A DNA stretch of 49,330 bases, taken from UHGV virus genome UHGV-0139780. One strand, given 5' to 3'. Below the pieces are notes generated by a model. That model made no database searches. It saw nothing but the letters and a program-made list of their open reading frames with translations, and was not told the DNA's origin. Positions 1 to 26,842 of this stretch are shown here, in pieces. The first letter of the stretch is position 1. Each line of letters starts with the position of its first letter. The stretch is from a virus. The position numbers and the translations under genes are program-made.

Positions 1-312
1 CCGGAAAAACCCGCGTGATAAAAAGGCCCGCACACAAGGTGCGGGCAAATGATCGCGTAATATACTCAACAATTAGCTCTGTAATTATACAGATTCTTAA
101 TAGCGACAGAACTATTTAATGCGCTCGGATTCGTTTTTAGTTGAAGTAATATTAAACACCCTGAAATATCGTATAAGTTACTCGAAGGGGTTCATTAGAA
201 TCCATTCAATGCTTTCTCGGCAGTGCTTTGAAACGATAATGGATAAGTAAGCACATACCTACAATGAAAGTGTGATATGTGATATAAATCCGCCATCCCG
301 ATTTGACTTTTC

Positions 313-648
313 ATGGAGGAAAACATGTCGAACGAGATGGCGGGCGTTACAACAGATCAAGTTGAGCGTATTGCCGCAATCGTTGCTCGGGAGGTTGTTG
401 GCAAATTGGGTAAAGAGCTACGTGAAGAAATTGGCCAGGAGGTCAACGATCAGCTGAAAACCTACTTTGGTGATATGACCCCGGCGCAACATAGTATTCA
501 ACACTCCAACCTGGACAAACTCCTTAACCGGTTAGATTCCATCTCAAGTGGGTTCTTTGGCGGCATTGTTTCTAAAATAACGTCGTTCATTATTACCGCA
601 CTGCTTTTGGGGTTAGCCGCGTATGGCGTAAAAAACGGGCTGCAATAA
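313..648 (+). CDS. small membrane protein with single C-terminal TM helix; putative holin
   Basis: 111 aa, hydrophobic C-terminal segment (ITSFIITALLLGLAAYGV); sits immediately upstream of the endolysin-like gene; GGAGGA before an alternative ATG at 325. Confidence 0.35.
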   Translation: MEENMSNEMAGVTTDQVERIAAIVAREVVGKLGKELREEIGQEVNDQLKTYFGDMTPAQHSIQHSNLDKLLNRLDSISSGFFGGIVSKITSFIITALLLGLAAYGVKNGLQ

Positions 649-661
649 CAGGAGATCAAGG

Positions 662-1354
662 ATGAAAACTCCGAGAGGCATTCGTAATAATAACCCCGGT
701 AATCTTGATAAAGGATCACCGTGGCAAGGTCTGGTTGCGAATCCAGACGAACCGCGCTTTTGCACGTTTAAAGACCCTGTTTGGGGGATTCGTGCGCTGG
801 CGGTGACTCTAATTACCTACCACGATAAACGTCGCGCAAAAGACGGCTCAAGTATCGATACCATTCGTGAAGTTATTGAACGCTGGGCACCGCCGAATGA
901 AAACAATACTGACGCCTACATTAATGAGGTGTCTAAAGCCGTTGGTGTAACCGCAGACATGATCATCGATCTGCATGATTACGACATCCTTCGACCTTTG
1001 GTTGAGGCAATCATTCGCCACGAGAATGGTCGAGGTCCACTCAAAACGCTGAACACCTGGTATGCGGCAGAAGTTATTGAGGAAGGTCTGCGTCGAGCTG
1101 GCGTCGTTAAGCCGGTGAAAACCGTGAAGGCTGTTCCTGTAACTAAAGAAACCGCAGGCGCAACTGTTACAGCAGGTATTGGTCTGGCGCAGCTGGCCGA
1201 TGTTATGCCGCAGGTTTCCGCTGCTATGGATAAGGCACAAGGTCATATCTCTAGCGGGGATACAGTACGCATCATCTTCGGTATTGCCACTATTGTTGTG
1301 GCAGGATTCATTGCCTGGTCGCAGGTAAGAAAACATCAGAAAGGGATGGTCTAA
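662..1354 (+). CDS. putative peptidoglycan hydrolase (endolysin-like) with C-terminal transmembrane anchor
   Basis: 230 aa; N-terminal GIRNNNPGNL motif; C-terminal hydrophobic helix (IIFGIATIVVAGFIAW); position between holin-like and spanin-like genes. Confidence 0.4.
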   Translation: MKTPRGIRNNNPGNLDKGSPWQGLVANPDEPRFCTFKDPVWGIRALAVTLITYHDKRRAKDGSSIDTIREVIERWAPPNENNTDAYINEVSKAVGVTADMIIDLHDYDILRPLVEAIIRHENGRGPLKTLNTWYAAEVIEEGLRRAGVVKPVKTVKAVPVTKETAGATVTAGIGLAQLADVMPQVSAAMDKAQGHISSGDTVRIIFGIATIVVAGFIAWSQVRKHQKGMV

Positions 1355-8427: not shown

Positions 8428-8910
8428 ATGGCGATAGTTGTGAAAGCTGATTTGTCAAAAATCCCCTCTATTTCAGGAAATAATGGTTATTCACTTCGTT
8501 GTGAGGAAGTAAAGATAAACGGTGAGTCGGCATATTGCAGTTACTCCGTTTGCCAGCATACCATTCTTGCCTTCAAAGAAAACCGTCTTCCTCGAACTTC
8601 ATTCCAGTCGTGCGCAACCGCTATCAAAGCAGGCAAATGCAAGGCGTTAAAAATGATGGTTGGAGAGATTCGTAAAGGAGAATCTCTGTATTTCGAAGAT
8701 ATGACCGCGCTCATTAAGGAGGTTGAAGAACGGAATAAACAAGCCAGAACTATAAAACGAAAACGTGACAGTGTAACGATTAATAGCATGGTTAAGAAGA
8801 GCACCACATCACAAACAGCGATCACTGACGTGTATGCGGCGTTGCTTGAAGAAACAACAAAAGAAACACATGAGCAAATCGATCAACATATGGAGGCAAA
8901 ACAACAATGA
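8428..8910 (+). CDS. hypothetical protein (Cys-containing, basic C-terminus)
   Basis: 160-aa ORF; no motif recognised. Confidence 0.4.
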   Translation: MAIVVKADLSKIPSISGNNGYSLRCEEVKINGESAYCSYSVCQHTILAFKENRLPRTSFQSCATAIKAGKCKALKMMVGEIRKGESLYFEDMTALIKEVEERNKQARTIKRKRDSVTINSMVKKSTTSQTAITDVYAALLEETTKETHEQIDQHMEAKQQ

Positions 8911-9376
8911 AAAAGTTGATCGCACTTAAGCATAAGCTGGACGAAATGAAAGCTATGGGAACCAATGCAAAAAAAGAGGCATTGGCCAACATGGATGACT
9001 TCGAGCAAAGCATGGTTTCATTGATGCTCAACCCTTTCATTCGTTTTGGGGTAAAGAAATACAAAGTGACCGGAGTTCCCTGAGTACTGGAAGCCTAAAA
9101 CGCGAGCTAAGTTAGAGCGTTTAGGGTTGGTTGCAAACGTTTCTGAAACGAAGTGTTCGGCCAACTACCAGTTAACTGATAAAGGGAAAGTATTGCTACA
9201 GCAATTAGTAGAATCAGGAGTGTTAAAATGATTCCATACATCTCATTAGCTTTTATGGCGGGCTTCCTTATCGGCTTCGGCATCTGTCGTGACTTAATTA
9301 AGCAGGAACTTAAAACCAAAACACTGTGCATCGGAAAGCGTGTGTATCGAGTAGTTCATGAAACAAAGGTTAGAAA

Positions 9377-9667
9377 ATGAGCAATTTAACTTCTTGGGAA
9401 TGGTGGTTGGTCACCTATTTCTTAGCGGCCGGAGTCGCATTCGCCTTTTACGTAGGTCAGTTAGTCGTAAAACTGCTGCTGATGAAATTTGCCAGTCATA
9501 AACGTATCGATGATGGTCTGTGGCGTCTTGGCACCCTGGTGGAAACTCGCTACGGGCAACTTAAGGAGAACGAAACCATTACTATCCAAGCGAAACGATT
9601 CACTGCCACCATCACAAGAACACCTGATCGTAGAGTGGCCTTGATCAAAAAAGTCACAACCGAATAA
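9377..9667 (+). CDS. hypothetical small membrane protein
   Basis: 96 aa with N-terminal hydrophobic helix (WWLVTYFLAAGVAFAFYVGQLVV). Confidence 0.35.
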   Translation: MSNLTSWEWWLVTYFLAAGVAFAFYVGQLVVKLLLMKFASHKRIDDGLWRLGTLVETRYGQLKENETITIQAKRFTATITRTPDRRVALIKKVTTE

Positions 9668-9872
9668 AAACACGACGATAAGTATTTACTTACCTATCCT
9701 TTGTGTATAAGATGACTTTGTTTTCGTTGAGACGCGACTGTTTGAACTTAAATACAAGTGCAAACGAAGAAGTCTATCTGGCAGTAGCCTAATAAGCCAA
9801 ACACCAGCGAGGTCAGTTTCCAGCCTCGTTACCGAAATGGAACACACTGAGCGAGTGTGATTGCAGAACGCA

Positions 9873-9978
9873 GGAGGGAACATGAGTGTTCCCTCCGATG
9901 AAGTAACAGGATGGGCGGTTGGTATTTCAACTCCATATGACTCCCGGATTCTTAGCCTCTGACCGCCCATCCTGTTAC
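9873..9978. repeat. two adjacent perfect hairpins (10-bp stem/4-nt loop; 17-bp stem/41-nt loop) in an ORF-free region
   Basis: ggagggaaca tgag tgttccctcc at 9873-9896; gtaacaggatgggcggt at 9904-9920 pairs with accgcccatcctgttac at 9962-9978. Confidence 0.6.
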
Positions 9979-10053
9979 GTCATTTTGTTCAATTATGTCG
10001 TTTATACTGGGTTAAAAAGCGGCGACGTAGCCCGGCTGGTATGGTTAGCCAGC

Positions 10054-10176
10054 ACACAACGTTGAGGCCATTACATTTTTATCAATTCTAAGGTTCTGTT
10101 CACAGAGATACCGGCGAGCGTTGATATGTAACATGTTGGGCAAACATTCAATCGGAGTAGTGGCCTCAACGTTGTG
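10054..10176. repeat. 16-bp perfect inverted repeat with about 90-nt loop upstream of the tRNA cluster
   Basis: cacaacgttgaggcca (10054-10069) and tggcctcaacgttgtg (10161-10176). Confidence 0.6.
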
Positions 10177-10440
10177 AAGACAGGATAGTTGTGTAGGTTT
10201 AACCACTGTTGCCATTGGTGCCTGTTTTCACAACAAATGATTCCATACATCACATTGTATAAATTATAAAGTAGGTGCTGTCCTCAGAAACATCATCTAC
10301 TTAAAGATTTAGCCTTCTATTGAGCGAAGTCGAAAGCGTCTGGCACTAACGTAAAGTGCAAGTAGCGGTGCGTTTCCTGGCAGAAACTAACACCGCCGCG
10401 ATTGGCACTGTTGAGTAATAAATACTGTCAGTGCTGAATT

Positions 10441-10515
10441 GATGGTGTAGCTCAGCGGCAGAGCAGTTGGCTGTTAACCAACTGGTCGGTGGTTCGAATC
10501 CACCCACCATCGCCA
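10441..10515 (+). tRNA. tRNA-Asn (anticodon GTT)
   Basis: Cloverleaf by eye: acceptor gatggtg/caccatc, anticodon loop ctGTTaa, T-loop ggttcgaatcc, encoded CCA. Confidence 0.8.
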
Positions 10516-10520
10516 ATTTA

Positions 10521-10608
10521 GGGGAGTTAGTCCGTAGAGGTAGCGGGGTAGACTGTAAATCTACTGTCATTGCGACTCGGATGGTTCGACTCCATCACTC
10601 CCCACCAA
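10521..10608 (+). tRNA. tRNA-Tyr (anticodon GTA), long variable arm
   Basis: Acceptor ggggagt/actcccc, anticodon stem-loop tagac-tGTAaat-ctact, long variable arm, T-loop ggttcgactcc, CCA. Confidence 0.8.
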
Positions 10609-10611
10609 ATT

Positions 10612-10687
10612 GCCGGTTTAGCTCAGTTGGTAGAGCAGTCGCTTTGTAAGCGAATGGCCAGCGGTTCAAGTCCGTTAACCGGCACCA
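10612..10687 (+). tRNA. tRNA-Thr (anticodon TGT)
   Basis: Acceptor gccggtt/aaccggc, D-arm gctcagttggtagagc, anticodon loop ttTGTaa, T-loop ttcaagt, CCA. Confidence 0.65.
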
Positions 10688-10695
10688 CAACAATT

Positions 10696-10782
10696 GGAGA
10701 GTAGGGAGCATGGTGCTCAAACGGTCTTGAAAACCGTCCCATTGCGCAAGCGATGATGGTTCGATTCCATTACTCTCCGCCA
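10696..10782 (+). tRNA. tRNA-Ser (anticodon TGA), long variable arm
   Basis: Acceptor ggagagt/actctcc, anticodon stem-loop acggt-ctTGAaa-accgt, long variable arm, T-loop ggttcgattcc, CCA. Confidence 0.75.
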
Positions 10783-10784
10783 GC

Positions 10785-10862
10785 CACAGCGTTGAGCGGT
10801 TTGGCCTTTTAATCACCCAGATTAAGACTCCGCTAACATAAACCAGACCGCTCAACGCTGTG
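10785..10862. repeat. 16-bp perfect inverted repeat with 46-nt loop just after the last tRNA
   Basis: cacagcgttgagcggt (10785-10800) and accgctcaacgctgtg (10847-10862); arm sequence resembles the 10054/10161 repeat. Confidence 0.6.
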
Positions 10863-10936
10863 ATAGACAATTACTGCAGACGTTCTTACCATAGCTTACT
10901 AACATCCCAGCAACTCTTCTGTCAGCGCAAAATTCA

Positions 10937-10958
10937 AAGGGGCTTCGGCCCCTTTTTT
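10937..10958 (+). terminator. rho-independent terminator
   Basis: aaggggc ttcg gcccctt followed by tttttt. Confidence 0.7.
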
Positions 10959-10998
10959 GTAACTGAAATAGTCAAATCGAACTTTGTAAGGAGAAGTA

Positions 10999-11244
10999 AT
11001 GACGATCACTATCTACGGACGAGATAACTGCTCTTACTGCAAACGTGCGGTCGAGCTGGCAAAGCAACTAAAGGGGCATGGCTGCGGTGATTATGAGTAC
11101 ATCGACATCACCACAGCCGGTATCGACAAGGAAAAACTAAGTGAAATTGTTGGTAAACCGGTAGAGACTATCCCACAGGTACTGATCGACGGCCAGCCGA
11201 TTGGCGGATACACAGAACTGGCTGCATACGTCAGCACCCTCTGA
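10999..11244 (+). CDS. glutaredoxin/NrdH-like redoxin
   Basis: 81 aa with CSYC active-site motif in a thioredoxin-fold context (ITIYGRDNCSYCKRA). Confidence 0.7.
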   Translation: MTITIYGRDNCSYCKRAVELAKQLKGHGCGDYEYIDITTAGIDKEKLSEIVGKPVETIPQVLIDGQPIGGYTELAAYVSTL

Positions 11245-13500: not shown

Positions 13501-15609
13501 ATGTCTAAAAAACGTTCCATCAAAGAGGTTCAGGACTTCCGTGACAGTGTAAAACGAGTAGTCGCTCTCCTTTCAGGTAAAAACATCCCTGTTGCAGAAC
13601 GAGGGGACGACGCTTATGTACGCTATAACGATGATGGAGAGCCAATTCTCGTAAACATCCCATCAATCCCGGATAACGCAACACCGGCATTGATGAATGC
13701 TGTGCGCGGATTTCTCGATCATGAGGTTGCTCACATTTTGTTTACCGATATTCGTGTGTCCAACAAAATGAGAGAAAAAGGACGCGTTCCTTCCTGGTCG
13801 CTATGGAATGCCTTAGAAGACGTGTTCATCGAGCGAAAAATGGGGCAGGTCTTTAACGGAACGAGACGTAATCTGATGGCAACTCAGCGCCTTATAATCG
13901 GAAAAGTCTTTAAACCAAAGGCTTCAGAGGCTATTGCTTATTGTGGCAAAGATCAGCGCGCGCTTTTTCTAAACTTCTTTCTCTGTCCGGTTGTAAGAGC
14001 CTGGGATGGCCAAGCACCGTTCGTAGATTTCATGGATGAATACTGGCCTGTCATTGAGAAACCAATTTCATTATTAAAAGAACATGGTATCGATGTGGCC
14101 GTGCGTAACATGTCTTGCACCGAGGATTGTGTAAAGGTGGCTGCGACCATAGCTAAGATCCTCAAAGACACTGAAAGCGAAAGCAAAGGTAAGGAGTCAG
14201 CTCCGGGAAAAACTTCCGATCCTTCAGACGCTGACCAGACGGATGCCTCTGGAGAAAACAATGAAGATAACGAAGATCATGAGACACCCTCATCGTTAGA
14301 TAATCACAAATCTATCAAATCAGAATCACACAGTAAGCACAAACATGATAATAACGACAGTAATGATTCAGATAATTCTGAATCATCAGAAACAATATTC
14401 GATGATACAGAAAATGATAAAGAGGTATCAGATTCTGATGCTTCTGATAACGCGGCGTCAGAATCATTAACCGCTGACCACGAAAAAAGAAAAACGACAG
14501 AAGACGGCTCTTCAGATATTCCAACTCCGTCAAAAATGAGTCTGGAAGAGGCTTTAGAGGAGCTGGATAGCATAGAAGATGAAGTCGGAGGCATGACAGA
14601 AGATGCTATATCCGAAACGATTAAAAGCGAGTTAACAGAAAGCTCGAAAAGCGAATACAGGCCATACAATCGCTCATACGACTTCATCGGCTCGATTGAT
14701 CAGGCAGAAGCCCATATCAAACGGCTTATTAAAACATTCTCCGATATTGATTTAGGAGGATATCCAATCAGCCGCTATCGCATCGTTCCTGAAGGCAACC
14801 AGCTCTTCGACAAATATATTGAAAAGCATCTTTCGTCAGGTGTTTCGTCGACGCTGGCAAAAGACCTGGAGCGAGCAATAGCAAGCAGAAACAGAGTTCA
14901 GTTTATACCGGGCCAGCGTCGGGGGCGCATTCATGGTTCTAGTATCTACAGATTAGCAATGAATGATGATCGCGTGTTTCGTAAAAAAGAAGAATCTAAA
15001 GCCGTTAACGCCTGTGTTCAACAAGTGATTGATTTATCAGGTTCAATGTGTGGTATAACGATACAATTGGCTCTTGCAAGTGCATATACCATCGCCGATG
15101 CCCTTGATCGAATAAATGTTCCCAACATTATCACCGGCTTCACTACATTTGGTAGTCATATGGCGGCAGGAGAACTTAAGGCTGTCAAGTATGAGTTCTC
15201 TCGCTTTGAGTCTTTAATGCTACCTATCATCAAAAATTGGAATGAAAAGGTAAATTCTCGCGAAGTTCGCTCACGTATGGGGTGCGTAGGCTACACATTC
15301 CCACTTCTTAATAACGTGGATGGTGAAAGTATAGCCAGCCTTGCATCGTTATTTTCCGGTCGCATGGAGGACAGGAAGATCATGCTTGTTCTGAGTGATG
15401 GCGCGCCGTGGGCTGTTGGGAGAGGGTTTGACGCTCATTTGCGTTCGGTTGCGAAGCAAATTGAAACGCAGACTGACATTGATTTGATGGCAATTGGCAT
15501 CATGACTGACGCACCGGAGAGATTTTACTCAAATCATGCCCTGGTAACGAGCGTTGATAGTCTTGGTTCATCTGTAGTTACTGAACTATCTCGTATCATT
15601 TTGAAGTGA
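13501..15609 (+). CDS. von Willebrand factor A domain protein (CobT-like) with central acidic Ser/Asp-rich region
   Basis: MIDAS-like DLSGSM motif in the C-terminal half; long acidic low-complexity segment; followed by an AAA+ gene. Confidence 0.6.
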   Translation: MSKKRSIKEVQDFRDSVKRVVALLSGKNIPVAERGDDAYVRYNDDGEPILVNIPSIPDNATPALMNAVRGFLDHEVAHILFTDIRVSNKMREKGRVPSWSLWNALEDVFIERKMGQVFNGTRRNLMATQRLIIGKVFKPKASEAIAYCGKDQRALFLNFFLCPVVRAWDGQAPFVDFMDEYWPVIEKPISLLKEHGIDVAVRNMSCTEDCVKVAATIAKILKDTESESKGKESAPGKTSDPSDADQTDASGENNEDNEDHETPSSLDNHKSIKSESHSKHKHDNNDSNDSDNSESSETIFDDTENDKEVSDSDASDNAASESLTADHEKRKTTEDGSSDIPTPSKMSLEEALEELDSIEDEVGGMTEDAISETIKSELTESSKSEYRPYNRSYDFIGSIDQAEAHIKRLIKTFSDIDLGGYPISRYRIVPEGNQLFDKYIEKHLSSGVSSTLAKDLERAIASRNRVQFIPGQRRGRIHGSSIYRLAMNDDRVFRKKEESKAVNACVQQVIDLSGSMCGITIQLALASAYTIADALDRINVPNIITGFTTFGSHMAAGELKAVKYEFSRFESLMLPIIKNWNEKVNSREVRSRMGCVGYTFPLLNNVDGESIASLASLFSGRMEDRKIMLVLSDGAPWAVGRGFDAHLRSVAKQIETQTDIDLMAIGIMTDAPERFYSNHALVTSVDSLGSSVVTELSRIILK

Positions 15610-15704
15610 ATAAAACAGCCTTAACGATAAGTAACCACTTACGATAGTTAATGGTATATTTATATAAGAGGTTGAACGCTCATTAGAGAACAAAGGAAAA
15701 ACGC

Positions 15705-17987
15705 ATGACGACTACTGCACTGCAAAATGAAAAAAATCCTTCTGATTACCTTGTTTGCAAGTGGTGCGGCAAATCATTTCACTATTTTAAGTCCCATGTA
15801 GCCAATGGTAATTGTGAGGGCATTCCTGAGTCAGTAAAAGATTCCGACCCTGACACCGTACTGAAAATGTACACAACGCAGTTTCCAGATGAGCCAACGC
15901 TATCGAAAAAGGCACTTGATGCAATTCAAGCTAAACGTGCCGAGCAAAAAAGCGAACTGGCCAAATCTTCTGGCGTGACCAGTAGCCCAGGCTACACAGG
16001 CACAGTTGAGTACAAGACAGATCTGGTCGCAGCTCACGAACTGCTAAACGTAACGGTGGAAGAACTCGGAACAAAACGTGGGACGCCGCTCATGGTTAGC
16101 GTCAACGTCAATACGCCGTTTCCAGAGTTCGTTCCCGAAGTGAAGAAGGGCTACGTATATGGCGACTTCGAACTGATCAAAGATATTTTCATGATGCTTG
16201 AACTTGGCATACCTGGCTATTTGTGGGGTCATGCAGGAACAGGCAAGGCCCAGCCAGTAGATACGCTAATCCCAACACCAAGAGGGATGGTGCGCTTTGG
16301 TGATTTGAAAGTTGGTGATGAGGTATTCGGATCTAACGGAAAGTCCACAAAGATAACAGGCATCTTCCCACAAGGGATTAAGCCAATTTATCGCATCACC
16401 TTTAGAGATGGTTCTAGCACACGAGCTTGCGGCGAACATCTTTGGCATATCCTACCTACACATGAATACAAGACCAAAAACGGCAAGAGCTACAAGCAAC
16501 ATGCAAAAATCAGAACGACCAAAGAAATGATTGACTTGGGAATCAGAAATTCTGGTGGTCAGTGCAAGTTCAAAGTTCCTTTAACTAAAGCTGTCGAGTG
16601 GCCCTCGCAGGAACATCTCATCCATCCCTATTTATTAGGTGCGTTAATTGGAGACGGTTACTTATTAGGGAACACGCCAGCAATGAGCGTGGGTACGGAA
16701 GACATTGATATCAAGAGAAGAATCGATTCTCTTCTTCCTGATGGTATGCGCACCAGCAAGCTCAGAAACACGAGTGAAAACGGGCGGCAATTTAATATCA
16801 TCGACTGCAAAAAGTTCCGTCAAAACAGAATGATGGATGAGATTAAACGGCTGGGTTTGAATGTGCAATCAGGGGAAAAATTTATCCCAGATGAATATCT
16901 CTTCGACTCCACTGAAAATCGCCTCGCTTTACTCCGAGGACTGATGGATACAGACGGAAGCGTGAGACAAAACCGTACAAACTTCTCCACCACGTCTGAA
17001 AAGCTGGCTGCATGTGTGAAGTTTCTTGTTCAGTCTTTAGGCGGAACTGCGATAGTAAAAGATGGAGCCGCAGAACGTCATAAGAGCGGTTACTATGCTG
17101 ATATTAACGTGAAAATGTTCATTAACCCATTTTCCGCTGATCGGAAATCCAAAAACTGGTCTCCATCTACCAAGAATCCGCCAAGCAGATTTATCACCTC
17201 TATCGAGGAAGATGGCGAGGCTGAGTGCATATGTATAAAAGTAAGCGCAGATGATGAACTGTACATCACCGAAGAGTTTATCGTTACGCACAATACAACT
17301 CTGCCTACACAGCTATGTGCTTTGCTCAATCGCCCGTTGATCCGTGCCCAACATACAGCATCAATGGAAGAGGCACATGTTACGGGGCAAATTCTGGCGC
17401 GTGATGGCTCTACGTATTTCGAACCTGGCTTGCTTGCGCTCGCAATGAAGCATGGCTGGGTTTACCTCGCGGATGAATACGACTTTGCGTTTCCACAAAT
17501 TCTTGGCGTGTATCAGCCAGTGCTGGAAGGTGAAGCGTTGGTCATCAAAGAGGCGACTCCAGAATGGCGTCGCATTACTCCGCATGAACGGTTTGCTTTC
17601 ATTGGCACTGGCAACACGAACGGATCTGGTGATGAAACCGGCTTGTACCAGGGTACAAACATCCAGAACGCCGCGAACTTTTCGCGTTTTGGCATCGTTT
17701 CGAATGTGAAATACATGAGCAAAGAGGCAGAGATCAACATGTTGATAAATGCCGGCATTGTGGATGAATACGCTGAAAAGATGGTTAAGTTTGCCGGTAT
17801 CGTTCGCGATGGATACGAAGAACACAATATTAGCCAACCAATTGGGCCTCGTGAGCTTTTGTTGTCGGCCAAGATTGGAATGATGCGAGGCGATTTTGTG
17901 ACAGGTATTGAGCGTTCTTTCATTAACAAACTCCCTTCAGCTTCTGCGCAAGCGGCACGTGAAGTTGTTCAAAAAATATTTGGTTAA
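15705..17987 (+). CDS. AAA+ ATPase (CobS/MoxR-like) interrupted by an intein
   Basis: Walker A GHAGTGK is split from the TTLPTQL continuation by 349 aa carrying two LAGLIDADG-like motifs and a terminal HN. Confidence 0.6.
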   Translation: MTTTALQNEKNPSDYLVCKWCGKSFHYFKSHVANGNCEGIPESVKDSDPDTVLKMYTTQFPDEPTLSKKALDAIQAKRAEQKSELAKSSGVTSSPGYTGTVEYKTDLVAAHELLNVTVEELGTKRGTPLMVSVNVNTPFPEFVPEVKKGYVYGDFELIKDIFMMLELGIPGYLWGHAGTGKAQPVDTLIPTPRGMVRFGDLKVGDEVFGSNGKSTKITGIFPQGIKPIYRITFRDGSSTRACGEHLWHILPTHEYKTKNGKSYKQHAKIRTTKEMIDLGIRNSGGQCKFKVPLTKAVEWPSQEHLIHPYLLGALIGDGYLLGNTPAMSVGTEDIDIKRRIDSLLPDGMRTSKLRNTSENGRQFNIIDCKKFRQNRMMDEIKRLGLNVQSGEKFIPDEYLFDSTENRLALLRGLMDTDGSVRQNRTNFSTTSEKLAACVKFLVQSLGGTAIVKDGAAERHKSGYYADINVKMFINPFSADRKSKNWSPSTKNPPSRFITSIEEDGEAECICIKVSADDELYITEEFIVTHNTTLPTQLCALLNRPLIRAQHTASMEEAHVTGQILARDGSTYFEPGLLALAMKHGWVYLADEYDFAFPQILGVYQPVLEGEALVIKEATPEWRRITPHERFAFIGTGNTNGSGDETGLYQGTNIQNAANFSRFGIVSNVKYMSKEAEINMLINAGIVDEYAEKMVKFAGIVRDGYEEHNISQPIGPRELLLSAKIGMMRGDFVTGIERSFINKLPSASAQAAREVVQKIFG
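16248..17294 (+). mobile_element. intein with LAGLIDADG homing-endonuclease domain inside the AAA+ ATPase P-loop
   Basis: LLGALIGDGYL and LLRGLMDTDGSV blocks; ends ...VTHN with Thr as +1 residue; N-terminal residue Ala (non-canonical); excision restores GHAGTGKTTL. Confidence 0.6.
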
Positions 17988-24664: not shown

Positions 24665-26842
24665 ATGGCAAAAGGAAAATCCGCACTGGCACTTGCTCTG
24701 AAAAAGAAAATCGGTAGCAACGACGAAATTCAGAAAGTAACTCATTGGATTGACACAGGCTTTCCTCCGTTAAACAAAGCTATTTCCGGTCGTTACGATG
24801 GCGGTTTCCCATGTGGTCGTATCGTAGAAGTATTCGGGCCGCCAAGCGCGGGGAAAACCTTTTTGGCAACAGCAGCAATGATATCCGCTCAGAAACAAGA
24901 TGGTCTGGCGGTATTCCTCGATCATGAGAACAGTTTTGATGTTGGCCTGGCTGTCGCCAATGGCCTGAACGCAGATGAGGATGACGGTCAGTGGGTATAC
25001 AAGCAGCCTGATACCTTCGAAGACTCTGTAGAGTTGATCGGCACAATACTTAAATTGGTACGTGATGAAGAGCTTATCCCTGAATCAGCACCTATCTGTA
25101 TCGTGGCTGACTCACTTGCGTCTATGGTTCCGAACTCCAAAGCCGAGAAGTTCGAAAAGATGGCTGAAGGCACTGCCAAAGACAAAGATCAGCTAAACAT
25201 GAACGACAATACGGCGCTGGCGCGTGCGACGAGTGCGAACTTTCCTACTCTGGCTTTGTGGGCGCGTAAATACAATGCTTGTTTAATTTTCCTCAATCAG
25301 ATGAGGACAAATCTGGGAATTATGTTTGGCGATAGATGTTTGAGAGGGGATGCAATAATACCTTTCGTTGATGGCACAAGCGCAACTATCCGAGAAATTG
25401 TAGAGAACAAAATAGAAAAAGATGTGTGGTCGTACAACGAAGAGTCAGGCGTTATCGAGCCAAAGAAAATCAACGAATGGCATGATAACGGCCGCAAGCC
25501 AGATGATGAGGAATGGATACACATCAGCACGCTTGGACACAATACCAAAAACGGGGTTATGGCTGCGACATTTACAGAGGATCACCGCATCCTGACTCGT
25601 CGTGGTTGGACTACGGCCAAAGACATAATTGAAGGCGATGAATTGCTTACCAAGCGCACAACTGTTTTAACTAATGAAACCAGGTCTCAAGTTGTCGGCT
25701 TCTTAGTGGGAGACTGCGCTTTTAGAAAGATGAGAGGCGAAAGAACCACAGCAGGCATTGCTTTTCAGGATAATGCGAACCCGTCTTACTCAAAGTGGAA
25801 AGCGGATAAGCTATCGAATCTATTTGGCGAATTTACAGAGACAAAAGTTCTTTTAGGTCGAATGTCAGGAAAGTACGGAATTAGACACGACTCTCCTGTT
25901 AACAACGATTTTAAAGACCTGGAGGATTATGTCAGAAATCCGCTAAAAGTGTTTACGGAGTTTGCCTCCTGGCAAAACTTCGCTCTACTGGTAATGGATG
26001 ACGGTCATCTTGATAGCAGAGGTCGATACGACATTTCATTTAAACGTAAGGCTAAAAAACACTGTGGCAGAGGGTATCTCCAAAACCTGGCCGATATCCT
26101 GTACGACAAATTCAGCATCAGATCAAAAGTTAACGCGCGTAAGGGAGGCCTCCTCTTTGACCAGGAATCCAGCGCCATAATTGCTGAGAATATTGCATCG
26201 TTTGTCTTTGATTCTATGCAGTACAAGCTCCCCTCGGAGTATCGTGGCAAGTTCGTCGATAATTATGATATGCAACCGGTAGTCTCATTCTATGAACATT
26301 GGACGGTCGTCAAAGATGTCCGCGAGAGCAAGGTAAAAAAGGGAGCGGGGAGAACATTAACACGACGTTATGACATTGGTGTTGAAGACAACCATAACTA
26401 TATGGTTGGAAATTCGGCAAATGGATTTATCGTTCACAATTGCACGTCACCAGGTGGCGATTCACCGAAGTTTTACGCTTCTGTGCGCATCCGTCTCGGT
26501 GCATCGGTGATGAAGGATGGTAAAGAGAAGATCGGTCAGGACGTAGGCGCAGAGTGCATCAAAAACAAAGTTGCACCACCGTATGGCAAATGCACCTGGA
26601 AATTCTACTTCGATCCTACTCGTGGCCTCGACGTTATCGAATCGCTCGTCGAGTACATGCTGGAAGAAGGATACCTGCCAAAGAACGCCAGCGGGCGCGT
26701 AGAAATTGGTGACAAGAAATACACCAAATCACAGATCGTCGAGATGTATCGGGAGAAGCCACTAGCTGAAATCATTGCGGCTTTACAGGCAATCGACGAC
26801 CGGAGAGCAAAAGATACCCCCACGGAGTCAGTAGAAGGGTAA
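24665..26842 (+). CDS. RecA/UvsX-like recombinase interrupted by an intein
   Basis: Walker A GPPSAGKT; exteins rejoin as LNQMRTNLGIMFGDR-CTSPGGDSPKFYASVRIRLG, matching the RecA block NQIR..[23 protein letters not shown]. Confidence 0.7.
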   Translation: MAKGKSALALALKKKIGSNDEIQKVTHWIDTGFPPLNKAISGRYDGGFPCGRIVEVFGPPSAGKTFLATAAMISAQKQDGLAVFLDHENSFDVGLAVANGLNADEDDGQWVYKQPDTFEDSVELIGTILKLVRDEELIPESAPICIVADSLASMVPNSKAEKFEKMAEGTAKDKDQLNMNDNTALARATSANFPTLALWARKYNACLIFLNQMRTNLGIMFGDRCLRGDAIIPFVDGTSATIREIVENKIEKDVWSYNEESGVIEPKKINEWHDNGRKPDDEEWIHISTLGHNTKNGVMAATFTEDHRILTRRGWTTAKDIIEGDELLTKRTTVLTNETRSQVVGFLVGDCAFRKMRGERTTAGIAFQDNANPSYSKWKADKLSNLFGEFTETKVLLGRMSGKYGIRHDSPVNNDFKDLEDYVRNPLKVFTEFASWQNFALLVMDDGHLDSRGRYDISFKRKAKKHCGRGYLQNLADILYDKFSIRSKVNARKGGLLFDQESSAIIAENIASFVFDSMQYKLPSEYRGKFVDNYDMQPVVSFYEHWTVVKDVRESKVKKGAGRTLTRRYDIGVEDNHNYMVGNSANGFIVHNCTSPGGDSPKFYASVRIRLGASVMKDGKEKIGQDVGAECIKNKVAPPYGKCTWKFYFDPTRGLDVIESLVEYMLEEGYLPKNASGRVEIGDKKYTKSQIVEMYREKPLAEIIAALQAIDDRRAKDTPTESVEG
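25337..26440 (+). mobile_element. intein with LAGLIDADG homing-endonuclease domain in the recombinase
   Basis: 368 aa beginning CLRGDAII and ending FIVHN with Cys +1; internal VVGFLVGDCAF and FALLVMDDGHL blocks. Confidence 0.7.

Follow-up and report, generated by a model that had tools for sequence, protein, structure and literature searches.

Few "auxiliary metabolic genes" are called as widely in phage genomes and viromes as cobS and cobT, which are routinely counted as genes of cobalamin biosynthesis. Such a pair lies in the virus genome UHGV-0139780, a metagenome contig of 49,330 bp (ENA ERZ1749178, NODE_140), the whole of which is termed the window here. The window represents the half of a Cyrano/SSU5-type phage-plasmid with the replication, recombination and nucleotide-metabolism genes, and the region of the pair is 98-99% identical to 198 near-identical records, namely 194 plasmids of Escherichia, Shigella and E. 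albertii and 4 phages. Two open reading frames (ORFs) at 13501-15609 and 15705-17987, both on the plus strand like all features of the pair given below, coincide exactly with the boundaries drawn in an initial annotation, which had read them as a vWA protein with a motif resembling MIDAS, the metal ion-dependent adhesion site, followed by a MoxR/CobS-type AAA+ ATPase. The pair is already known and widespread, whereas the intein that interrupts the CobS-type protein is newly reported, and no published description of an intein in CobS was found in the literature.

The upstream gene (13501-15609) encodes a CobT-like protein of 702 aa with the complete CobT architecture, consisting of an N-domain, an acidic linker, a shaft and a vWA domain with MIDAS. 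It matched Pfam CobT over aa 9-294 (E 8e-27), the CobT_C vWA domain over aa 492-701 (E 2e-82) and phrog_1576 of PHROGs (E 5e-301), and the family profile matched the solved CobT 9uka_G with an E value of 3e-61. The N-domain (aa 1-225; 13501-14175) was modelled by AlphaFold2 (AF2) with a pLDDT of 93 as a helix, a small β-sheet and about nine helices. The following Ser/Asp/Glu-rich linker (about aa 225-400; 14173-14700) carries a net charge of -35 and is presumably disordered. It had been singled out as unusual in the initial annotation, a view that did not hold, since the most acidic 100-aa stretch has a median net charge of -39 across 146 diverse CobT-like representatives, and cellular CobT has a disordered linker of ~90 residues as well (preprint 10.64898/2026.07.21.739949). 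The acidic linker is a family-wide trait common to cellular CobT and not an anomaly.

The shaft-equivalent segment (aa 452-500; 14854-15000), which aligns with Q373-R413 of 9uka_G, is one of the best-conserved stretches of the family, with R458 and G475 invariant and K454, E457, G471, L482, D489, R491 and F493 at least 90% conserved. The vWA domain (aa 492-701; 14974-15603) contains the MIDAS sequence DLSGS (aa 511-515; 15031-15045) as annotated at the outset, and the motif DxSGSM is present in 146 of the 146 representatives. Homologues of the CobT-like protein form 4,990 clusters at 50% identity.

The downstream gene (15705-17987) encodes a CobS-like AAA+ ATPase precursor of 760 aa, composed of an N-extein, the intein and a C-extein. 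Its matches to AAA_5 (E 3e-10), phrog_249 "porphyrin biosynthesis" (E 1e-98) and solved CobS (E 3e-26), together with the Pfam matches of its neighbour, confirm the initial observation far beyond chance and assign the two proteins to the CobS and CobT families rather than to unrelated ones. The family of the ATPase had thus been named correctly, but it is not a plain ATPase of 760 aa, as aa 182-530 are an intein. The N-extein (aa 1-181; 15705-16247) comprises a C2H2-like zinc-finger motif (C18, C21, H26 and H31; 15756-15797), a linker and the Walker A motif up to Lys181 (16227-16247). The C-extein (aa 531-760; 17295-17987) supplies the Walker A Thr, Walker B (D590/E591), sensor-1 (N637), the Arg finger (R661) and sensor-2 (R716). 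The five catalytic elements of CobS, taken from the list in the preprint 10.64898/2026.07.21.739949 and mapped on 9ujv_A, correspond in spliced numbering to G175-T182, D241/E242, N288, R312 and R367, and all are invariant residues in the family alignment.

An N-terminal extension of ~140 aa is found in phage CobS of the window lineage and not in cellular CobS, the alignment with which starts at aa 142. In its C-x2-C-x4-H-x4-H motif, C18 is invariant and C21, H26 and H31 are at least 90% conserved, and the motif may form a DNA-binding zinc finger. Assignment to the Ros/MucR zinc fingers was rejected for the window protein, whose own N-terminus gave no match (a distant CobS homologue reached 25.3 bits against Pfam ROS_MUCR, with a cutoff of 25.4), and the element is retained as a conserved C2H2-like motif. 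The motif of phage phiK7B1 falls upstream of where the cobS start has been annotated, which suggests a mis-called start codon.

A class 3 intein in the Walker A motif of CobS

The insert of 349 aa (Ala1-Asn349; precursor aa 182-530; 16248-17294), which accounts for the length of the 760-aa ORF, is an exact in-frame insertion of 1047 nt relative to orthologues of 411 aa that are 99% identical outside aa 182-530, and all 198 near-identical records align in two pieces with 76% query coverage. It separates the Lys and the Thr of Walker A (K181/T531; GHAGTGK|AQPVD…IVTHN|TTLPTQL), the "classic" P-loop intein site (PMC5050341).

Splicing blocks A, B, F and G, the terminal His-Asn and the +1 Thr are all present. 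Conservation was assessed in 41-100 homologues, depending on the alignment. Block B, ACGEHLW (16425-16445), bears His B10 (H245) and Trp B12 (W247), which correspond to the invariant H64 and the at least 90% conserved W66 in intein numbering, and (D/E)HxW occurs in 100/100 family members. Block F, ECICIKV (17223-17243), bears Cys510 as the class 3 block F nucleophile, invariant as C329 in intein numbering, with Cys in every one of the 100 members. Block G, IVTHN (17280-17294), provides Thr G5, His G6 and Asn G7 ahead of Thr+1; THN is likewise present in all 100, and the +1 residue is Thr in 82 of them and Ser in the other 18. Position 1 is Ala, which is no nucleophile, and the intein family mostly has A, Q, E or D there. 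Class 3 inteins are defined by the lack of an A1 nucleophile and by a WCT triplet at B12, F4 and G5 (PMC5050341); in the window intein this triplet is W247, C510 and T528, each invariant or at least 90% conserved among the homologues.

Two LAGLIDADG motifs occur between blocks B and F. The first, LLGALIGDGYL (16632-16664), has G131 and G135 invariant and D136 and G137 at least 90% conserved, and the second, LLRGLMDTDGSV (16929-16964), has G231, D234 and G237 invariant and D236 at least 90% conserved (intein numbering). Both keep their acidic residues (D136 and D234/D236) within an αββαββα fold, and Pfam LAGLIDADG_3 and Hom_end were matched (PF14528 E 9e-9; PF05204 E 2e-5), as were intein-bearing terminase, DnaB, RFC and GyrA families and solved inteins. 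The AF2 model of the intein (pLDDT 94) has the HINT fold, as Foldseek retrieved PI-SceI (E 5e-19, TM 0.72), the mini-inteins 6bs8, 6rix and 6riz (target TM 0.74-0.83), the class 3 M. smegmatis DnaB intein, I-DmoI and other endonuclease-bearing inteins. Judged by sequence and model together, the insert is a class 3 intein with a predicted LAGLIDADG homing endonuclease. Since Lys181 and Thr531 stand 349 residues apart, the precursor would be unable to form a P-loop, and ATPase activity would require splicing; by analogy with established P-loop inteins, the 760-aa precursor would neither bind ATP nor become active before splicing.

An assembly artefact or an engineered insert was ruled out, because an independent contig from run SRR1761716 encodes the identical ATPase precursor protein, with 0 mismatches over 8746 nt. 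A foreign base composition was considered and dropped, the GC content of the intein (44.3%) not being distinctive against that of the exteins (46-48%).

The intein is rare. Its DNA was not found in 5,426 complete E. coli genomes, and it is absent from the 198 near-identical plasmids and phages, from 160 IMG/VR CobS loci (52-99% identity) and from the best 120 CobS protein clusters (43-99% identical), two longer members of which have only longer N-terminal linkers. Apart from a Xenorhabdus CobS allele, a search of 5.8 billion proteins gave, as the nearest inteins, ones of no more than 46% identity, which occupy the same Lys|Thr site in PhoH, AAA_24, RecA, helicases and TerL. A scan for the degenerate junction W-G-H-A-G-T-G-K-x-Q-P gave no further CobS intein in IMG/VR or JGI metagenomes and a single match in 185,579 species genomes, which falls on a contig of 102 kb belonging to Xenorhabdus hominickii DSM 17903; 27 matches to a relaxed pattern were unrelated, bar one PhoH intein. 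In X. hominickii, the gene immediately downstream of a CobT-like one encodes a CobS-like protein and is interrupted by an intein at the identical site. The locus covered begins inside this intein (NZ_NJAI01000009.1, locus positions 1-1172, minus strand), of which the first 169 residues are readable, and over these it is 59% identical to that of the window, compared with 38% for the N-extein and 45% for CobT. The "CobS P-loop" intein is thus a rare allelic element and no unique event, and an allele so diverged at the same site implies long-term persistence.

The absence of the insert from almost all relatives is also what a recent, possibly deleterious event would leave behind, such as a decaying, non-splicing intein or a free-standing endonuclease insertion that has turned the ATPase gene into a pseudogene. 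Against this, the reading frame is unbroken, all splicing-block residues and the acidic residues of both LAGLIDADG motifs are intact, the AF2 model has high confidence and resembles an intein, two independent samples share the identical sequence, and the Xenorhabdus allele points to persistence; inactivation of the ATPase is thus very improbable.

The immediate flanks of the intein differ from those of intein-free relatives at -1 (16247) and at +1, +3, +4, +6 and +7 (17295-17301), which is six differences within 8 nt against a background divergence of ~1%, and turn GK|SSL into GK|TTL. The intein-free allele reads …GGAACAGGCAAATCGTCATTGCCTACA… and the window's own spliced sequence AAGACAACTCTG, while the codons AAG|ACAACTCTG occur in 0/158 close relatives. 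From this pattern the substitutions look like a short co-conversion tract that arrived with the intein and that, if so, would change the target of the endonuclease as well.

Another member of this class 3 P-loop intein family was seen in a PIN/PhoH-like ATPase on a 101.9-kb contig (Ga0114978_10000033, 4923-6983, minus strand), where a 35%-identical intein has the junctions NGHAGVGK|AQPLD…ILTHN|TLLAV; this copy shows, at the level of sequence, that the family moves between P-loop ATPases on large phage-sized contigs. The window itself holds a second, unrelated intein of ~370 aa in a RecA/UvsX-like gene (725 aa; 24665-26842, plus strand), with the elements …LGIMFGD…CLRGDAIIP…GFIVHN|TSPGG, an intein that none of the 551 related plasmid records has. 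In phage Cyrano this RecA site is uninterrupted, and a different intein occupies the RecA P-loop (GPPSAGK|CVTADTML…IISHN|TFLATAAM). Intein content is therefore polymorphic in the Cyrano/SSU5-type phage-plasmid family, and the window contig holds two inteins that sequenced isolates lack.

Genomic context and the cobalamin annotation

The two genes are conserved together, adjacent and in this order in all of the 160 viral IMG/VR loci examined. The gap from cobT to the cobS downstream of it measures 99-104 nt in 80/80 close loci, cobT precedes cobS in all of the 73 diverse loci with sufficient upstream sequence, and the adjacent, co-oriented genes with an intact MIDAS make up a MoxR-class AAA+/vWA-MIDAS two-gene module. 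The pair also occurs in cyanophages, ICP2-like vibriophages and rhizobiophages, and PHROGs families exist for both proteins. In the literature, cobST is on record for ICP2, cyanophages, pelagiphages and viruses of archaea, and is in every case presumed to be an auxiliary gene for cobalamin (PMC3037004, PMC8651126).

The position of the pair in the genome points elsewhere. The gene for Pol III alpha (dnaE) is directly downstream of cobS on the same strand in 67/67 diverse loci with sufficient downstream sequence. In Pseudomonas phage phiK7B1 the pair is found among primase, ligase and Pol III alpha genes, in Rhizobium phage RHph_N1_10 among those for ligase, RepC, Pol III alpha and SSB, and in the T4-like cyanophage syn9 between gp46/47 and the gp45 clamp with the gp44 clamp loader, while a helicase and Pol I are encoded a few kb downstream in the ICP2-like podovirus JSF27. 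In four unrelated phage lineages with three replicase types, cobT-cobS therefore sits in the DNA-replication module. As phage early genes cluster anyway, a link of the pair to replication, drawn from gene position, is proposed tentatively and with somewhat less than even confidence.

The lack of a cobalamin pathway around the pair, pointed out in the initial annotation, was upheld and extended, as neither CobN nor any other cob gene was found in the window, where the large ORFs serve replication, recombination and nucleotide metabolism, or anywhere in the genome of phage Cyrano, which is 98% identical. E. coli lacks the de novo pathway and requires heterologous cobN, cobS and cobT for cobalt chelation (PMC6249242). 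The scores also remained far below the NCBIfam equivalog cutoffs, with 75.1 bits against 558.55 for CobS (TIGR01650) and 66 against 759.05 for CobT (TIGR01651). It has been hypothesized that viral CobS and CobT hijack the CobN of the host (PMC8651126), and this putative idea is all that the literature found offers on the phage role, which is as little established as had been stated at the outset. By extension, the pair of the window could be an auxiliary cobaltochelatase that recruits a host CobN or a ChlH-type subunit and boosts cobalamin synthesis, a role that has been suggested for archaeal as well as marine viruses. The domain architecture of CobT and the fact that the closest solved and curated relatives are the cobaltochelatase proteins CobS and CobT are in line with this proposal. 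The missing CobN, the E. coli background and the equivalog scores argue against it, as do a conserved HExxH that distinguishes the phage CobT and the zinc-finger extension at the N-terminus of the phage CobS. Such a role is accordingly very unlikely, and the phage pair is probably not a cobaltochelatase. All in all, the initial annotation was right on family and context and wrong on the linker, and it missed the P-loop intein, the sole rare feature between 13501 and 17987.

MoxR-vWA pairs are known from conflict systems, and the pair might accordingly be a defence or counter-defence module of that type, in keeping with a short N-domain motif that matched the anti-CRISPR AcrIIA26. That match is short and unsupported, however, PADLOC returned no significant match, and the pair belongs to a conserved replication core that is syntenic across the 160 loci rather than to a variable island, which leaves defence or counter-defence a most improbable function.

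The orthologues of the pair in Cyrano (OV696614.1), CYRAN_47 and CYRAN_48, are labelled "dimethylbenzimidazole phosphoribosyltransferase" and "cobalamin synthetase", and these labels are wrong owing to a name collision with the unrelated enzymes called CobT and CobS in the Salmonella nomenclature. Further differences between the window and Cyrano lie outside the pair. Cyrano has a DNA ligase gene between the orthologues of ORF 8428-8910 and the tRNA cluster, which is missing from the corresponding part of the window (8910-10999). The window encodes four tRNAs (Asn, Tyr, Thr and Ser; 10441-10782), compared with three annotated in Cyrano, where Tyr is lacking.

The HExxH motif of the CobT N-domain

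The first helix after the sheet in the N-domain model carries the sequence HEVAH (aa 74-78; 13720-13734), and an HExxH near aa 70 is present in 142/146 diverse CobT-like representatives. In a 30-sequence alignment of the N-domain, D73, H74, E75, H78, N103, E106, D107 and E111 are invariant, the last four belonging to NALEDVFIE (aa 103-111; 13807-13833) on the next long helix. In topology the phage model agrees with the solved cellular CobT_N, in which AVEQARVEA aligns with NALEDVFIE and GDSMALR takes the place of the motif (DSMALR versus phage DHEVAH). HExxH is also found in Rhizobium phage, ICP2-like and cyanophage homologues, and the cyanophage homologue is annotated "peptidase".

These observations raise the question of whether the CobT-like protein is an active zinc metallopeptidase, in which an ancestral M48-like zincin domain is tethered to the vWA domain. 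With the CobS ring it would then form a two-component ATP-dependent protease or processing machine, of which cellular CobT would be an inactivated descendant. The conservation of HExxH across these phage groups, the invariant E106, D107 and E111 on the following helix and the placement of the motif in the model favour this proposal. The crystal structure of CobT_N was, moreover, likened by its authors to the peptidase M48C domain (preprint 10.64898/2026.07.21.739949), and yet DSMALR replaces DHEVAH in the cellular protein. Fold searches with the phage N-domain retrieved no zincin, however, and membership of a zincin fold or sequence family was not detected, so that an active peptidase is regarded as unlikely.

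As a separate observation on this domain, the N-domain profile matched AcrIIA26 (PDB 9zq6_B) with an E value of 5e-4 over 50 residues (CobT aa ~95-144), centred on the motif N-x-v-E-D-x-F-I-E (13807-13833); the match is short and perhaps due to chance.

A putative ring-and-shaft motor and its known counterparts

In the CobSTN structures, CobS assembles into a hexameric ring, CobT_N attaches to the small CobS domain, the "shaft" preceding the vWA domain enters the pore of the ring, and CobN binds CobT opposite the ring, near the MIDAS (preprint 10.64898/2026.07.21.739949). The interpretation that we consider fairly probable is that the phage pair works as a ring-and-shaft motor like CobST, that its client is not CobN and may have a link to replication, and that its ATPase is active only after splicing. 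As the catalytic elements are invariant, the shaft is conserved and the MIDAS is present in 146/146 representatives, the ring-and-shaft mechanism is probably conserved in analogy to the cellular motor. By homology, the phage CobS would assemble into an AAA+ hexameric ring, on which the N-domain of the CobT-like protein would dock, with the shaft threading the pore and the vWA/MIDAS face presented to the client. CobN would be no candidate for the client, as it is lacking from both the element and E. coli, and from the location of the pair inside the replication cluster of unrelated phages we infer that the client may be tied to phage replication or nucleotide metabolism. The intein is predicted to splice out via the block F cysteine to give an ATPase of 411 aa with a GKTT P-loop, and its endonuclease would spread the intein to intein-free alleles.

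Several points weigh against this motor interpretation. The position in replication modules could reflect the mere clustering of early and auxiliary genes, and the 160 loci may represent one broad lineage with a conserved gene order. The pair may instead handle metals or tetrapyrroles independently of CobN, and both splicing and endonuclease activity are read from motifs. HExxH, for its part, is not indispensable, because it is missing in phiK7B1 and in 4/146 representatives.

A more far-reaching model can be put forward, in which phage "cobST" is unrelated to cobalamin and constitutes an ATP-driven remodelling or processing machine of the replication module. Its adaptor would keep an active ancestral zincin (HExxH) site lost in cellular CobT, and the P-loop class 3 intein would gate its activity after translation, with a catalytic cysteine through which splicing could respond to redox state or metals. 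Taken as a whole, this model is speculative and rather unlikely. For much of the phage cobST family, the cobalamin annotation is nevertheless probably wrong, because the hosts of this lineage are without CobN, the conserved HExxH is absent from real CobT, and the genes are positioned in the replication module in four phage groups. A discussion of the conserved HExxH and of the replication-module position of phage cobST was not found in the literature. The MIDAS, the HExxH, the shaft and the client protein offer concrete testable handles, and the window provides a tractable E. coli phage-plasmid system for the role of phage cobST as well as a natural class 3 P-loop intein.

Among known systems, the CobNST motor (PDB 9UJV-9UKL, 21VT and 21VU) shares with the phage pair the identical CobS catalytic residues and the adjacency of the genes, and its CobT has the N-domain, the disordered acidic linker, the conserved shaft and the vWA/MIDAS. 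The phage pair differs in that it lacks CobN, stays below the equivalog cutoffs, has HExxH where cellular CobT has DSMALR, bears the ~140-aa C2H2-like extension at the N-terminus of CobS and, in the window, contains the intein. The phage "cobST" cluster, which belongs to the core of T4-like cyanophages and is also known from ICP2, pelagiphages, haloarchaeal tailed viruses and SSU5-type phage-plasmids, is of the same family and gene order and is usually listed under the auxiliary genes for cobalamin or porphyrin, with a putative function; the window copy is set apart from it by the P-loop intein. NorQ/NorD, CbbQ/CbbO and the AAA domains of midasin likewise combine an AAA_5/CbbQ_C-type ATPase with a client-engaging MIDAS vWA partner, but they are far more distant (E 1e-6 or weaker versus 1e-26 for CobS) and their partners have no CobT N-domain.

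The intein, in turn, resembles the class 3 P-loop inteins mycobacteriophage TerL1-a, MP-Be DnaB and Msm DnaBi1 (PMC5050341, PMC6195587) in its Lys|Thr site, the lack of a nucleophile at position 1, the WCT triplet, the LAGLIDADG endonuclease and its phage-borne nature. It differs from them in its host protein, as a CobS-type AAA+ ATPase is a new host for the P-loop class 3 intein family.

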